64,000 nucleotides of DNA from a candidate division FCPU426 bacterium. GTDB taxonomy: Bacteria > Oederibacteriota > Muellerivitia > Muellerivitales > Muellerivitaceae. The notes below the pieces were generated by a model. It saw nothing but the letters and a program-made list of their open reading frames with translations, did not search any database and was not told the DNA's origin. Of the stretch, positions 12,172 to 18,817 are shown piece by piece; the first letter of the stretch is position 1, and every line of letters starts with the position of its first letter. Location: positions 864,001 to 928,000 of the forward strand of contig CAVRAL010000004.1 in the NCBI GenBank assembly GCA_963719085.1, in the 5' to 3' direction. The position numbers were made by a program, and so were the translations under genes.

Positions 12172-13446
12172 TCAGATCCTCGAGAGGTTCAAATCCGCGC
12201 AGAGGATATAGGTTTCCCCGGTCGCGGCTTCGCTCACGGTTTGGGCCACGGTCACGCAGAAATTTCCCGAGTTCATCGACACCATAGGCTCGCTGACGTG
12301 GCGGTTTTCGCCCCCCGCCAGGGTATAAAAATATTCCCGGAATGAATGGTCCGCGCCCTTGGGCGAGGGCTGGAACAGCACCTTCTTGCGCTCGGGAATA
12401 TGGGTCTCACTGCAGACGGCCGGCGTGATCTGGGTGCCTTCGGAATCCAAAAGATAAAGGCATTCCAGCGCGGGATAATTCTTGAATTGCAGCCCAAATG
12501 TTTTCTCCATTTGCGGGACCGAAAGGTTCTCGAAGCGCTGGAAGATGGAATTGCCGATCCAGCCGCAGCGGCTTTTAAGCTGCAGGTCCCGCTTGGCTCG
12601 CGTGGCCGCGCGGCGGCGGTACCGGGAGGCTAAAAACTGCATCCGGGCCTTGCGGCCCAGCGTGAAGACCGTGGGCGCCTTGTAGTTTCTTGAGAAATAG
12701 CCGCCCTGCAAAAGATCCACGCCCATTTCCAGCGCCACCAGCGCGTCCTCCTCGCTTTCCACGCCGTTGACCATCACCAAGACCCCCAGCGAATGGGCCA
12801 GTTTCAAGACCGACCGGTAGGCGTCCTGCTTTTCCGGGCGGGCGGAAAGCCCCCGGGTCATCGATTCCTCAAAACGCACCATATCGGGGTTGCATTTGAG
12901 CACCATATCCAAATGATCGGGCCGGTTTTTGACGTCGGTCAGCGCGATCAAAAAATGGTGGCTGCGCTGCAGATGGATGAATTTTTTCACGTAGGCCGGA
13001 TCCATGTCGGCGGCCAGGGAAATTTGAATGACCACCTGCTGGGGATCAAGGGAAAGTTCCTTGACCTGGCGCAAGAGATGGCCGGACCCCACGATGGCCC
13101 CCTCCAAAATCGAGGGCTCGATCCCTAAAAATAAAAGCAGGTTGGGCATTTGGGTTTGGAAAGGGGAAAAATCCTCCAGCCCTTTTTTGCGGAAAAGCCG
13201 GTCCAGCGCCAGTTTCAATCCGGGTTCCTCATCGCCCATGCCCCTAAAAAGATCCTGGGGCTCGATGAGGGATTGGTTCTCCGGATTCACGGCCCGGCTC
13301 AAGGTCTCCAAGCCGATCACGCCCATCTTTTGAACCGACAGCACGGGCTCAAAAAAAGACGCCACGCTGTTTTGTTCCAAAATGTAAAAGGGATGAACGG
13401 GATAAGACGCCAACGATCCGTCCACAGTGTTGGGTTCCGGTTGCAT
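12172..13446 (-). CDS. EAL-domain protein with C-terminal YkuI_C/Cache-like domain; degenerate EAL
   Basis: FFEPV..GLETLSR, NGVESEED, LLQGGYF; C-terminal YLLDSEGTQIT...GADHSFREYF. Confidence 0.8.
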   Translation of the reverse strand: MQPEPNTVDGSLASYPVHPFYILEQNSVASFFEPVLSVQKMGVIGLETLSRAVNPENQSLIEPQDLFRGMGDEEPGLKLALDRLFRKKGLEDFSPFQTQMPNLLLFLGIEPSILEGAIVGSGHLLRQVKELSLDPQQVVIQISLAADMDPAYVKKFIHLQRSHHFLIALTDVKNRPDHLDMVLKCNPDMVRFEESMTRGLSARPEKQDAYRSVLKLAHSLGVLVMVNGVESEEDALVALEMGVDLLQGGYFSRNYKAPTVFTLGRKARMQFLASRYRRRAATRAKRDLQLKSRCGWIGNSIFQRFENLSVPQMEKTFGLQFKNYPALECLYLLDSEGTQITPAVCSETHIPERKKVLFQPSPKGADHSFREYFYTLAGGENRHVSEPMVSMNSGNFCVTVAQTVSEAATGETYILCADLNLSRI

Positions 13447-14603: not shown

Positions 14604-15590
14604 TTAAGACGGGACCGATGGGGAATTTTCAGGCGGCGGCTCCGCGGGTTTCTCCGCCGCCGCGGTTTCTTGAATCAGAAACAAAGTTCCCCAAGGTTTG
14701 CCCGAGGGGCTGACGCCCAGCGAGCTGTCAAAACGAAAACGCTTGGGAACCTTTTTCCATTCCAAGTCCACGTAATGGCGCTTGAGATCCTGGCGCTGCT
14801 CGATGGATTGACGCATCACCTCGCTGAGGGGGCCCAGGGGGTTGTCCTTGGCCCGGAGATCGGTGTTGCGCAGGGCCCGGGGGTTTAAATCCAACAGTTT
14901 GCTCACCTTGGCATTGGCGAAAATGACGTAACCATCGGTGGAAACGGCCAGGGCGCCCAGAGGCAGGCCGTCCAGCACGCTTTTCAAAAGCCCCGCGTAT
15001 TCCAAGGTGGCCTGGTCGCCTTTGGCCACCTTTTCGGTCAAAAGATCAATGCGCTGGGCCAAAAGCACCATGTCCTTTTCTTCCTGTACGGTCCGGTAGG
15101 CCAGGTACCCGGAGTGGATGGCCACCACAAAGATCAGGGCGCAGGCCAAAAGGAAAAAAGGATCCATATAGTTAAAGTCGGGATTCTTGTTGTAAAGCAG
15201 GTCCACATAGACCGAGGTGACCATGACCGCCACCACCAGGCTTCGGCCCATGGATTGGCTTAAGGCCGAGATGAAAAAGGTCAGGAACATCACGATCAAA
15301 AGCTGGGTGTCAAAGCCGTCAAAAAGGTAAAGCGCGCCCAAAAGAAAAATCAGGTCCATGGCGAAGACCAGGTATTGGAGCCTCACGCTTTTAAAACGGT
15401 CCTCGTCCCAGAAATAAAAGGGGATGAAGGAAGCCGCCAAAAGGGCGGCGTAAACCAAAACGGTTATTTTTTGAGCCGGATTATTTTGGAGGTAAAAAAA
15501 AGCCAGGCAGCCCAGGATCAGGCTGAGGACCAAGCGGATGAGAAAAACATTTTTTTTAACGTGAGGCGTAGCCTGCTGGAAGGTTTCCAT
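14604..15590 (-). CDS. Membrane protein with C-terminal PAS-like domain
   Basis: About 6 TM helices, coiled coil, then VLDGLPLGALAVSTDGYVIFAN; no output domain. Confidence 0.65.
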   Translation of the reverse strand: METFQQATPHVKKNVFLIRLVLSLILGCLAFFYLQNNPAQKITVLVYAALLAASFIPFYFWDEDRFKSVRLQYLVFAMDLIFLLGALYLFDGFDTQLLIVMFLTFFISALSQSMGRSLVVAVMVTSVYVDLLYNKNPDFNYMDPFFLLACALIFVVAIHSGYLAYRTVQEEKDMVLLAQRIDLLTEKVAKGDQATLEYAGLLKSVLDGLPLGALAVSTDGYVIFANAKVSKLLDLNPRALRNTDLRAKDNPLGPLSEVMRQSIEQRQDLKRHYVDLEWKKVPKRFRFDSSLGVSPSGKPWGTLFLIQETAAAEKPAEPPPENSPSVPS

Positions 15591-16680: not shown

Positions 16681-16709
16681 TCCAATGATTTTTGTTAAAG
16701 GAGTTGACC

Positions 16710-17168
16710 ATGCTCGATTATTTCAAACGCCTCTTTCAATACAATGCCTGGGCGCAGGAGCGGATTTTGGCGGCGCTGGAAAAGATTGATCCCGCGTCCC
16801 TGGACGAAAAAGCCGTTAAGATCGCGGGCCATATCCTTTTGGCCAGCCGCATGTGGCTGAACCGGCTCTTAGGGAAACCCAATATCGACATGTCCCAGGT
16901 TTTAACCCTGGCCCAATGCCGCGCGCTTTTTGAGGAACTCAAGCCCGAATGGAAAGCCTATTTGGAGGGTCTCCGCGAAAACAGCTTAAGTGGAAAAACC
17001 GCTTACCAAACCACCCAAGGCAAGAGCTATGAGAATGTCCTGTCCGATGTGCTGGCCCATTTGGTGAACCATTCCACCTATCACCGGGGCCAGGTCGCCA
17101 CATTGATCAAAAAGTCGGGCGGAGAAGTGCCTTTCACCGATTTCATCGCTTTTGTGAGGCAGCCATAG
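16710..17168 (+). CDS. DinB family protein
   Basis: YNAWA, GHI, HLVNHSTYHRGQ, TDFI. Confidence 0.9.
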   Translation: MLDYFKRLFQYNAWAQERILAALEKIDPASLDEKAVKIAGHILLASRMWLNRLLGKPNIDMSQVLTLAQCRALFEELKPEWKAYLEGLRENSLSGKTAYQTTQGKSYENVLSDVLAHLVNHSTYHRGQVATLIKKSGGEVPFTDFIAFVRQP

Positions 17169-17209
17169 GTTGTCGAAAGGACAATCCTATATAAAGAATA
17201 TATTTAACT

Positions 17210-17246
17210 CCCTCTCCCTTGAGGGGAGAGGGTTGGGGCGAGGGTG
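17210..17246. repeat. REP-like palindrome, family D
   Basis: CCCTCTCCCTTGAGGGGAGAGGGTTGGGGCGAGGGTG; copies at 20561 and 21637. Confidence 0.8.
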
Positions 17247-17344
17247 AATCCGGCTAAGAGGGAGCGGGTCTTTGTTTTATGCCTGTTTTGCCAAGGTTTA
17301 GCGTTCGGATTTTTGTATCGGTTGCCTGGGGCCTGCGTTAAAAT

Positions 17345-17817
17345 AGGGCTACCGGATGAATTGCCCCTGTTTTAGGGGCCCGGGGCTCGTCAAGGGGCGA
17401 ATAGGCCGGTTTAGTCAGCCTTTAAAGGGGATGACTTAAGGCCGGTGGATTCCTAACTTGATAGGCAGAGATGGTTCTTTTAAAAGATGTCGCCACGAGG
17501 CCCATGCCGCTGATCTGACAATCACCGGGTCTTAAGGGAAGGCGATGACCAACCGTTGACCCTCTTTTGAGAAAAAACAACCTCAAGGGAAGCTAAGAAA
17601 CATCCAGAGCCGCTTTTCTGGACGGTTTCGAAGCTTGTGCCTGGAGCAGGCTCAAAAGACCCCAGTCAACGTTGTGATAGACTTTTAAAAGGGAAGGATT
17701 CCAAAAGGCCTAGGATCTTCGTGAGGTTTCACGGGACCCTGGGGATATTACTTACCCCTATTGGGAGGACGGTTCCACCCGCGCGCATCATCAACCCTTT
17801 GCCGCCGGTGTCGCTCT
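17345..17817 (+). ncRNA. Large structured ncRNA, OLE RNA-like, apparently lacking the 3' domain
   Basis: Nested long-range stems visible in the sequence (see findings). Segments CUGUUUU, UUAGUCAGCCUUUAAAGGGGAUGACUUAAGG and CCAUGCCGCUGAUCUGACAAUCACCGGGUCUUAAGGGAA match my recollection of the OLE 5' half in the same order; not checked with a covariance model. Confidence 0.65.
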
Positions 17818-17860
17818 TCGACCCGATTACAAAAAATTAACCCAATGAGGTGTAGTCGTT

Positions 17861-18817
17861 ATGTTACAAGTTGAAAACAAAGTCACCCCCCTGGTGGTTC
17901 CGTCGGCGACGACAAAGACCGCCAAAGCCATGTGGCGCAAGTTCACCCACGACGAGCAGATCGACTGGGGCGGCAGCATCGCGTTTTTCGGCGTGCACGT
18001 GATCGGGATCTGCGCGATTTTCACCGGCATCAGCTGGGCCGCCGTCGCCATGTGTTTCTTCATGTATTACATCCGCATGTTCGCCATCACGGGTGTTTAC
18101 CACCGTTACTTCTCCCACCGCACCTACAAGACCAGCCGGGTATTCCAGTTTATGCTGGCCTTCCTGGGCTGTTCCTGCGGCCAACAGGGCCCGCTTTGGT
18201 GGGCCGCCCATCACCGCCATCACCATAAGTACTCGGACACGGAAGAGGATGTGCACTCCCCCGGCCTTCGCGGCCTTTGGTGGGCCCACCTGGGTTGGAT
18301 CCTTTGCAAAAAGTACGCCCCGACCAAGGAAGAAAACGTGAAGGACTTGACCAAGTATCCGGAACTGATGTGGATCAACAAGTACCACGGGATCGCGCCT
18401 TTTCTTTTGGCCGTCGGCATCTTTTTCTTCGGCGCGTTTTTGCAAAAGGTCGCTCCCGGTCTTCACACCAACGGCCTCCAGATGATCGCTTGGGGGTTTT
18501 TCCTCAGCACCACCCTTCTTTATCACGGCACCTTCTGCATCAATTCGCTGGCCCACATTTTGGGCAAGAAGCGCTTTGAGACGGGGGATATGAGCAAAAA
18601 CAGCTTCATCCTTTCCATGATCACCATGGGAGAAGGCTGGCACAACAACCACCACCGCTATCCCTACTCGGAACGCCAAGGCATCTATTGGTGGGAGATC
18701 GACATGTCCCACTATGTGCTGACGGTTTTGTCCTGGTTCGGGCTGGTGTGGGACATCAAACTGCATCCTGAGGAAATTTACCAGGAAGCCAAAGGCCGCA
18801 AGGAAGTCGCGGCTTAA
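17861..18817 (+). CDS. Delta-9 type acyl-CoA/acyl-lipid fatty acid desaturase
   Basis: His boxes YHRYFSH, HRHHH, GEGWHNNHH; WWEID; RBS GAGGTG. Confidence 0.93.
   Translation: MLQVENKVTPLVVPSATTKTAKAMWRKFTHDEQIDWGGSIAFFGVHVIGICAIFTGISWAAVAMCFFMYYIRMFAITGVYHRYFSHRTYKTSRVFQFMLAFLGCSCGQQGPLWWAAHHRHHHKYSDTEEDVHSPGLRGLWWAHLGWILCKKYAPTKEENVKDLTKYPELMWINKYHGIAPFLLAVGIFFFGAFLQKVAPGLHTNGLQMIAWGFFLSTTLLYHGTFCINSLAHILGKKRFETGDMSKNSFILSMITMGEGWHNNHHRYPYSERQGIYWWEIDMSHYVLTVLSWFGLVWDIKLHPEEIYQEAKGRKEVAA

Follow-up and report, generated by a model that had tools for sequence, protein, structure and literature searches.

A large conserved and structured element ahead of a fatty-acid desaturase gene in a candidate-phylum bacterium is probably an mRNA leader and not an OLE RNA

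What occupies the long space in front of a fatty-acid desaturase gene in a bacterium of the candidate division FCPU426? The question is raised by a stretch of 64,000 nucleotides (nt) from this organism (contig CAVRAL010000004.1 of assembly GCA_963719085.1; hereafter the window, with its first letter as position 1), in which 692 nt separate an open reading frame (ORF) for a DinB-family protein (16692-17168; PF05163 at 1.4e-19) from the ORF of a desaturase of 318 amino acids (17861-18817, + strand; PF00487 at 1.6e-19). An earlier note on this DNA, made from the letters alone, had remarked on a gap of about 690 nt without a credible ORF and had proposed that it holds a compact variant of OLE RNA. 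Its description of the gap was borne out, as there are only short ORFs and none of them is kept in homologues; so was its suggestion of a large structured non-coding element upstream of the desaturase, which proved to be conserved and to covary in homologous loci. Here we report that this element is real, conserved, structured, encoded on the + strand and tied to a Delta9-type desaturase, and that it is neither OLE nor a member of any Rfam family. We consider it probable that the segment 17268-17759 (+) represents a new structured RNA leader of narrow distribution, termed type A below, which is transcribed together with the downstream desaturase and acts in cis on its mRNA.

When the gap was compared by blastn with 41 related genomes, a single true match was obtained, in a genome of another genus of the same family (G004; 75% identity over 428 nt); the many further matches all fell on a repeat of about 40 nt at 17200-17250. 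A wider blastn search located the element in the host genome (G000) and in G004 only, i.e. in 2 of 31 genomes of the family, 2 of 32 of the order and 2 of 99 of the phylum, a small candidate phylum represented by 99 species genomes. An exact 20-mer from the most conserved block was present, among 185,579 species genomes, in the G004 contig alone, a result that is valid for that word and would miss versions like that of locus L026, which carries one mismatch. A two-word pattern scan of metagenomes returned four contigs, of which L023 equals G004 within the element and L024, L025 and L026 are new. Five distinct type A versions are therefore available: the window, L002, L024, L025 and L026. Of the four besides that of the window, one is from the genome of another genus and three are from contigs of metagenomes; a further contig is a duplicate. 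A profile of the block (nhmmer) matched these loci alone (E ≤ 1e-143; all else E ≥ 1.2), and a covariance model (CM) of the central domain, R1, scored 138-139 bits (E about 1e-38) in G000 and G004 only among the 99 genomes of the phylum. The next best match had E = 0.0095; with per-genome E values of 0.0095-0.87, the ten weak matches of this kind in other genomes do not rise above chance level, and the one examined (G044) lies on a different contig from the desaturase of that genome. Diverged type A copies in front of other desaturase orthologues were not found either with nhmmer (58 loci) or with the CM (99 genomes). A mobile repeat was likewise rejected: according to CM R1 the block is single-copy in the host genome, and only 17200-17250, beyond the block, is repeated. 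The sole other genome of the host genus (G001, 82% complete) has neither the desaturase (E ≤ 1e-20) nor the leader, for which loss or an assembly gap are both possible.

Downstream of the block, on the same strand, each of the five versions has the same desaturase ORF, as expected for the position of a cis-acting leader, and the encoded proteins of these leader-linked orthologues are 88-97% identical. The gene on the other side varies: the window, L025 and L026 have a co-directional DinB gene there, L002 and L024 a divergent gene for a membrane protein. Because the upstream neighbour differs, it is block and desaturase that form the unit moving together.

The conserved block itself covers about 490 nt, with 71-89% identity to the window in the five-sequence alignment A2, compared with 63-78% at four-fold degenerate sites of the adjacent coding sequence, and alignment fails on both flanks; the spacer towards the DinB gene and the linker towards the Shine-Dalgarno (SD) sequence are unalignable even between the window and L025. 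Conservation within the block is very uneven. There are several invariant runs of 8-26 nt, and a run of 47 columns (A2 columns 318-364; window 17556-17601) is identical in all five sequences apart from one A/U change at 17572. Comparison of the homologues revealed no conserved ORF in the block on either strand, and a small conserved ORF or leader peptide was rejected, since starts, stops and frames vary among them.

A check of homologous regions for covariation, which the earlier note had recommended, favoured an RNA structure. The RNAalifold consensus, derived from the five sequences themselves, comprises 138 pairs and was evaluated against 500 shuffles and against controls in which partners were slid: 91.0% of its cells are paired, compared with 87.3 ± 0.6 in the shuffles, and 21 of the 138 pairs show two-sided (compensatory) change, compared with 11.4 ± 2.3 in the shuffles (0/500 reach 21) and 2-10 in the slid controls. 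The best-supported local elements lie at 17352-17384, 17409-17440, 17489-17546, 17590-17636 and 17709-17743. The motifs listed in the earlier note all sit where it had placed them, and its picture of nested stems survives in part. Those of its stems that fall within the block hold up in the homologues (57 pairs, with 89.0% of cells paired), mostly because neither strand varies, and they show 4 two-sided pairs against 2.0 ± 1.0 in shuffles (31/500 reach 4). By contrast, the three stems that were to close the fold have their 3′ strands, CCGGT (17805-17809, with its GCTCT extension), TCATC (17788-17792) and TCCACC (17774-17779), in the variable linker 17760-17846, so that the limits of 17345 and 17817 drawn from them are not conserved and give way to 17268 and 17759.

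The strand was assessed in two ways. The folding energy of 17330-17830 is modestly better than in shuffles (+, z = -2.44; -, z = -2.43) and, because both strands score alike, tells little when taken alone. Applied to the 680 cells of the alignment, the pair list yields 619 paired cells for the + strand and 513 for its mirror, with 121 G-U cells on + against 15 mirror-only cells (A-C on +); this comparison, which is biased in that the structure was derived on the + strand, points to an RNA encoded on that strand.

No terminator-like site was identified on the + strand in 17100-17950, and in L002 and L024 only about 35 nt lie between the block and the SD sequence. Read-through into the desaturase is therefore the simplest arrangement, and the block would accordingly be the 5′ leader of its mRNA. 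Four metatranscriptome runs, two of which (X17 and X18) are probably one data set filed twice, offer a hint of transcription, no more: of their contigs, one of 255 nt (X15) covers 17445-17688 apart from 8 differing letters and 11 letters in gaps, one of 337 nt (X17, X18) includes 17557-17696 and reaches 196 nt further 5′, and one of 428 nt (X16) spans 17829-18200 together with 36 upstream letters that match the linker of L025. The segment 17275-17414 is uncovered in these runs, which has no bearing either way.

Orthologues of the desaturase at 67-80% identity are encoded in 26 of the 31 family genomes, none of them with the type A block. In front of such orthologues we found a second conserved leader, type B, at seven loci from five other genera (L031, L032, L035, L036, L037, L045 and L044). 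It starts at a GGTATAAT box located 327-351 nt 5′ of the ATG in six loci and 216 nt in L044, contains a conserved three-way junction motif (CCCGGACC...ACGGGYCC), and shows two-sided change in 21 of 91 predicted pairs, a count made without a control. Type B, like type A, has no match to an Rfam family. The two leaders share the gene, the position in front of it, considerable length (about 330-350 nt in type B) and pairs that change on both sides; they differ in that type B has a clear start at its GGTATAAT box and in that no sequence similarity between them is detectable (nhmmer E ≥ 1.2; no blastn match joins the groups). A 5′ hairpin common to both (GGATG...GCCCCT...TTTA) was considered and, being present in type B only in L031 and L032, was treated as chance. 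Since type B precedes orthologues in at least five other genera, long leaders seem typical for this gene in the family, which suggests that long structured leaders are a general feature of it. At one of these loci (L032, 2586-2677) a long hairpin lies 3′ of the desaturase of genome G005; several eukaryotic microRNA-precursor models match both of its strands far below their cut-offs, and it is probably another palindromic repeat.

Along type A, the first conserved part (17271-17337) consists of a T-rich run, AAGGTTTAGCGTT (17293-17305), GGATTTTT and TTG, all invariant in the five versions; the RNA could have its 5′ end here, or this part could be promoter/operator DNA. RNAalifold pairs 17293-17303 with approximately 17675-17685 (10 pairs, 100% of cells paired, one-sided changes only). 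It is followed at 17338-17345 by TTAAAATA, also invariant in all five, which contains a candidate -10 box, TAAAAT (17339-17344), with no -35 box at the proper spacing in the sequence. Because a conserved GGTATAAT box heads the type B leaders, TAAAAT may by analogy be the -10 box of type A, with a transcription start near 17351. Transcription could start either there or upstream of 17293; a start near 17351 would make 17271-17337 a DNA-level control sequence.

Downstream of this box, a hairpin at 17352-17384 has an outer helix CCGGA/CCGG and an inner helix GCCCCU/AGGGGC (88% and 86% paired; 1 and 2 two-sided pairs). The earlier note had paired 17361-17368 with 17393-17400; that pairing is the weakest of the retained stems (76.9%), and the nearer partner 17374-17379 fits better (86.2%, 2 compensatory pairs). 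The next domain (17391-17460; helices 7-10, of which helix 9 has 2 compensatory pairs) is built around the AGUCA/UGACU hairpin (17409-17417/17432-17440) and includes the invariant runs GGGGAUGAC (17427-17435) and UUGAU (17457-17461), while in 17446-17456 (UGGAUUCCUAA in the window) four of the five sequences have 1-4 bases that depart from the majority. A long-range helix is then predicted between 17475-17486 and 17682-17693, which hold the first and second copies of the 10-nt palindrome CUUUUAAAAG: it has 12 pairs, 93.3% paired, with zero two-sided changes, and is also predicted by RNAalifold with ribosum scoring. Two RNAalifold runs give differing closures and leave the long-range arrangement ambiguous; 17293-17303 may pair with about 17675-17685, and 17475-17486 with 17682-17693. 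The self-complementary 10-mer CTTTTAAAAG occurs twice in this region, at 17477-17486 and 17682-17691, 205 nt apart. Its second copy is invariant in all five versions; the first is exact only in the window and L025, reads CTTTTAAAGG in L002 and L024, and is shifted in L026. The two copies could serve for mutual RNA pairing, as protein sites on DNA or in self-association of the RNA.

Between the strands of this helix lie a long hairpin, GUCGCC.../...GGCGAU (17489-17546; 3 pairs with two-sided change), and the most conserved, central domain (17547-17672; model R1), closed by UUGAC/GUCAA. Three segments of the latter are invariant: a, UCUUUUGAG (17563-17571); b, CUCAAGGGA (17582-17590); and c, CUCAAAAGA (17651-17659). 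It also contains the inner hairpin AAGCU/GAAAC/UCCAGA...UCUGGA/GUUUC/AGCUU (17590-17636), proposed in the earlier note and now found to covary, with 3 pairs changed on both sides: GAAAC:GUUUC is replaced by GCG:CGC in L002 (less cleanly in L024) and by GAAG:CUUC in L026. A 3′ hairpin, CCUAGGAUCUU.../...GGGACCCUGGG (17709-17743; 13 pairs, 4 two-sided, 89% paired), and a tail of invariant columns, AUAUUAC-YW-ACCC (17744-17758), end the block, and the alignment collapses immediately 3′ of the tail. L002 and L024 lack the variable linker of the window (17760-17846), and what L025 and L026 have in its place is shorter and cannot be aligned with it; the distance from the block to the SD sequence ranges from about 35 to about 100 nt. 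The SD sequence GAGGUGU (17847-17853), 7 nt 5′ of the ATG at 17861, is kept in all five versions, within AAYGAGGUGU in four and within a AACGAGGUGU-like context in five.

According to the model that we favour, the multi-domain fold would set the translation or stability of the desaturase mRNA upon a physical or chemical cue. Temperature or the state of the membrane lipids is our guess for the cue, because desaturases are classic genes of cold and fluidity responses. The device we would prefer is a switch within the invariant central domain, in which UCUUUUGAG would pair with either CUCAAGGGA or CUCAAAAGA; pairing with the latter would release an ACCUC stretch that is complementary to the SD sequence. 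Segment a can indeed pair with b (9 pairs, two of them G-U) or with c (9 Watson-Crick pairs, extended by UUGAC/GUCAA), and a:b is at, or at most 2.5 kcal/mol from, the minimum free energy in all five sequences. The ACCUC stretch lies in an invariant block and complements GAGGU of the SD sequence, a pairing that is predicted to be used only in L026. We put the a:b/a:c switch forward as a hypothesis and not as a finding.

Several observations weigh against a cis-acting RNA leader, or against this way of working. Identity to the window, taken over the whole leader, barely exceeds that at four-fold degenerate sites of the adjacent coding sequence for two versions (L026, 0.71 and 0.70; L024, 0.725 and 0.69; the values are 0.73 and 0.63 for L002 and 0.89 and 0.78 for L025). 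The covariation test is weak because the five sequences, which are all the distinct ones there are and represent 2 of 99 phylum genomes, fall into three close groups and because the structure came from the same alignment, which favours structure in the test; the long-range helices rest on invariant strands. As for expression, a sigma-70 consensus promoter was sought and rejected (0 sites in 17100-17950), and since none was found, co-transcription is something that we infer; the RNA contigs, which derive from relatives and could include DNA, reveal neither termini nor strand, and no single one of them joins the leader to the coding sequence. The first 70 nt may belong to DNA-level control and not to the RNA. 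Nor was an expression platform recognized. An intrinsic terminator or attenuator was rejected for want of any + strand site in 17100-17950, and masking of the SD sequence by a conserved partner was rejected because the predicted partners differ among the five homologues. Finally, a:c is 1.8-8.0 kcal/mol worse than a:b in all five sequences at 37 °C, and a switch to a:c at low temperature was rejected, no reversal being predicted at 25 or 10 °C.

When the five full leaders were subjected to partition-function folding at 37, 20 and 5 °C, no common partner for the SD sequence emerged, and the probability that the SD sequence is unpaired followed no common trend with temperature, contrary to what an RNA thermometer would show. 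A CsrA target was also rejected: PF02599 had matches in E. coli, B. subtilis and T. maritima, which served as controls, and none in the 99%-complete genome G000.

The alternative that survives best is an independent large non-coding RNA acting in trans, with its own promoter, stable alone or after processing, and directed at the membrane or other targets; it would be an analogue of OLE unrelated to it by descent. With about 490 nt, a multi-domain fold and long invariant single-stranded runs, type A is nearer to the ornate large RNAs than to typical leaders, no expression platform was recognized, and the variable linker speaks against a rigid coupling between fold and ribosome-binding site. The two copies of CUUUUAAAAG could, moreover, mediate self-association. 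Against this stand the lack of a terminator-like site after the block and the spacing in L002 and L024, where some 35 nt are too short for a separate promoter and leader. The element also keeps to one gene and one orientation in all five versions despite changed upstream neighbours, and the presence of an unrelated leader at the same place in orthologues fits gene-specific control in cis. We therefore hold a trans-acting RNA to be unlikely.

In a bolder version, which we regard as distinctly unlikely, type A would represent a new class of ornate large RNA (about 490 nt) and would directly sense temperature or the state of the membrane lipids. It would then either turn on the desaturase mRNA or be set free as a stable RNA, possibly self-associating, that acts at the membrane; the unrelated type B would be a second and independent answer to this problem. 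If true, a diderm candidate phylum would have a functional counterpart to OLE.

Control exerted mainly at the level of DNA would interpret the block as a long promoter/operator with protein-binding palindromes, such as the two copies of CTTTTAAAAG and the sequences at 17293-17337, the helices being by-products of inverted repeats. This would account for the longest 'helices' consisting of invariant strands with zero two-sided change, for a 10-bp palindrome that is present twice, for the resemblance of the invariant TTAAAATA and the 70 conserved nt upstream of it to a promoter with upstream sites, and for fold z-scores that are equal on both strands. On the other hand, 21 pairs in local hairpins change on both sides and yet stay paired, which operator DNA does not do, and 121 G-U cells pair on the + strand only; conservation extends over 490 nt, mostly 3′ of any plausible start, and relatives of 17445-17696 occur in RNA libraries. 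For the block as a whole we judge this explanation highly unlikely; for the first 70 nt alone it is quite possible, if not the side on which we would come down.

To a decayed mobile element, a pseudogene or chance conservation between close relatives, without function, we assign very little probability: the narrow distribution in the phylum and the overall identity near that of four-fold sites would suit it, whereas the single copy in the genome, the absence of a conserved ORF or frame, the sharp borders, the 47-column run with one change in five sequences, the compensatory changes and the constant position before one gene do not.

There remains the proposal of the earlier note, that the gap contains a member or minimal variant of the OLE class. 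In its favour are only the resemblances of motifs that the earlier note named, the large size and a membrane-related neighbouring gene, with no tool result in its support. The search with the Rfam model of OLE (RF01071) that the earlier note had named as the check gave no match at E ≤ 10 in 17100-17900 under permissive filters; nor was there one at E ≤ 1 in the whole host genome, with 14 control genomes silent too, or at E ≤ 0.5 in the homologous loci L025, L026 and L002. By the earlier note's own reckoning, under which the assignment would fall if the OLE model gave no significant score, kinship with OLE is refuted. Its further idea that the 3′ domain (the P12-P15 region, which binds OapB) seems absent finds no support either, since the closing stems on which it was based lack conservation. 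The model should pick up a true minimal variant, because the two shortened OLE variants described in PMC11332333 were detected by Infernal with the model of OLE and retain many of its highly conserved nucleotides; in the same account, 2,822 of 2,846 OLE matches belong to Bacillota and 24 lie elsewhere. The present host is a diderm, as the earlier note had supposed, and belongs to a small candidate phylum; its genome (3.04 Mb, 99% complete) encodes Omp85/BamA (2.9e-50) and LpxC (6.5e-92). The neighbours are a DinB gene (PF05163) and a desaturase gene (FA_desaturase, PF00487), and oapA is not among them; this applies to the locus, no genome-wide search for oapA, oapB or oapC having been made. 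With RF01071 silent in gap, genome and homologous loci, the wrong neighbours and a host outside the Bacillota, an OLE RNA has next to no probability here. Other Rfam families fared no better: Rfam 15 gave no family at gathering score over the 64-kb window, and at E ≤ 10 in 17100-17900 there were just five chance-level matches (E 1.8-6.6), to eukaryotic microRNA, small nucleolar RNA and long non-coding RNA models, which were rejected.

Type A nevertheless resembles OLE in kind, as both are hundreds of nt long and multi-domain, with invariant runs between covarying stems and a membrane-related neighbouring gene. It differs in length (about 490 nt compared with about 600 nt), in having no match to the OLE model, in a diderm host from a small candidate phylum and not from the Bacillota, in neighbours that are DinB and desaturase genes instead of oapA, and in lying directly before a gene with no terminator, whereas we take OLE to be a free-standing RNA within a ribonucleoprotein. 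OLE has been linked to cold, alcohol and Mg2+ stress (PMC10898510, PMC12054373).

Among regulatory leaders, the likeness to riboswitches and the cis-leaders of Rfam lies in the position, on the same strand directly upstream of one gene family, and in covarying stems with invariant junction and loop nucleotides; type A differs in being much larger than usual aptamers, in having no Rfam match in the 64-kb window and in that no terminator or SD-sequestering helix was identified. The cspA 5′ untranslated region (UTR) in E. coli is a long cold-sensing mRNA leader. It would be matched by type A as a long 5′ leader of a cold-response gene with possible alternative folds, for which a:b/a:c would fit; type A is three times longer, however, bears no sequence relation to it, and no temperature reversal is predicted (37, 25 and 10 °C). 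Thermometers of the ROSE and fourU kinds control the translation of temperature-relevant genes from the 5′ UTR, as type A would. They are short SD-masking hairpins that melt on warming, whereas the SD sequence of type A is not consistently masked and a desaturase would need the opposite, cold-on logic.

In bacteria, control of membrane unsaturation is known through proteins, namely two-component systems and repressors. DesK/DesR of Bacillus subtilis and DesT of Pseudomonas exert such protein-based transcriptional control on desaturases; they regulate the same function, membrane unsaturation, by means of proteins acting on transcription, in contrast to a conserved RNA fold in the type A leader. 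A limited literature search returned no description of an RNA-based sensor or leader of a bacterial desaturase. A fold of 490 nt and a second, unrelated leader suggest that mRNA leaders regulate membrane fluidity in a small uncultured phylum, and each new large structured bacterial RNA is useful for work on structure and mechanism because few of unknown function exist. The weight of the case is limited by the narrow distribution of the element, of which there are five distinct sequences and which occurs in 2 of the 99 genomes of the phylum.

The desaturase that follows the leader in every case matches the DesA family of NCBIfam below the cut-off of that model. Its sequence contains the histidine boxes HRYFSHR and HHRHHH, which we take to indicate the Delta9 type. 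No two-component pair adjoins the gene, whose neighbours are EamA, DinB and DUF4337; farther out, the row comprises EamA, EAL and DUF4337 genes.

The repeat of about 40 nt at 17200-17250 forms a hairpin (CTCCCTCTCCC...GGGAGAGGG, then a G-rich tail) shortly 3′ of the DinB stop codon. Of the 41 related genomes, 24 carry copies of it, as many as 17 in a single genome, and several families of the phylum have them; the repeat is also deeply represented in metatranscriptome contigs. Its matches to Rfam whalefall-1 (12 bits) and mir-3059 are weak and below threshold; it is probably a REP-like element or a terminator, outside the leader. Upstream of the row formed by EamA, DinB, leader and desaturase, a 328-amino-acid ORF on the - strand (14604-15590) is without a Pfam family and has a weak histidine-kinase-like NCBIfam match (PnpS, 5e-05, far below cut-off), and a gene at 12172-13446 (-) encodes an EAL-domain protein.

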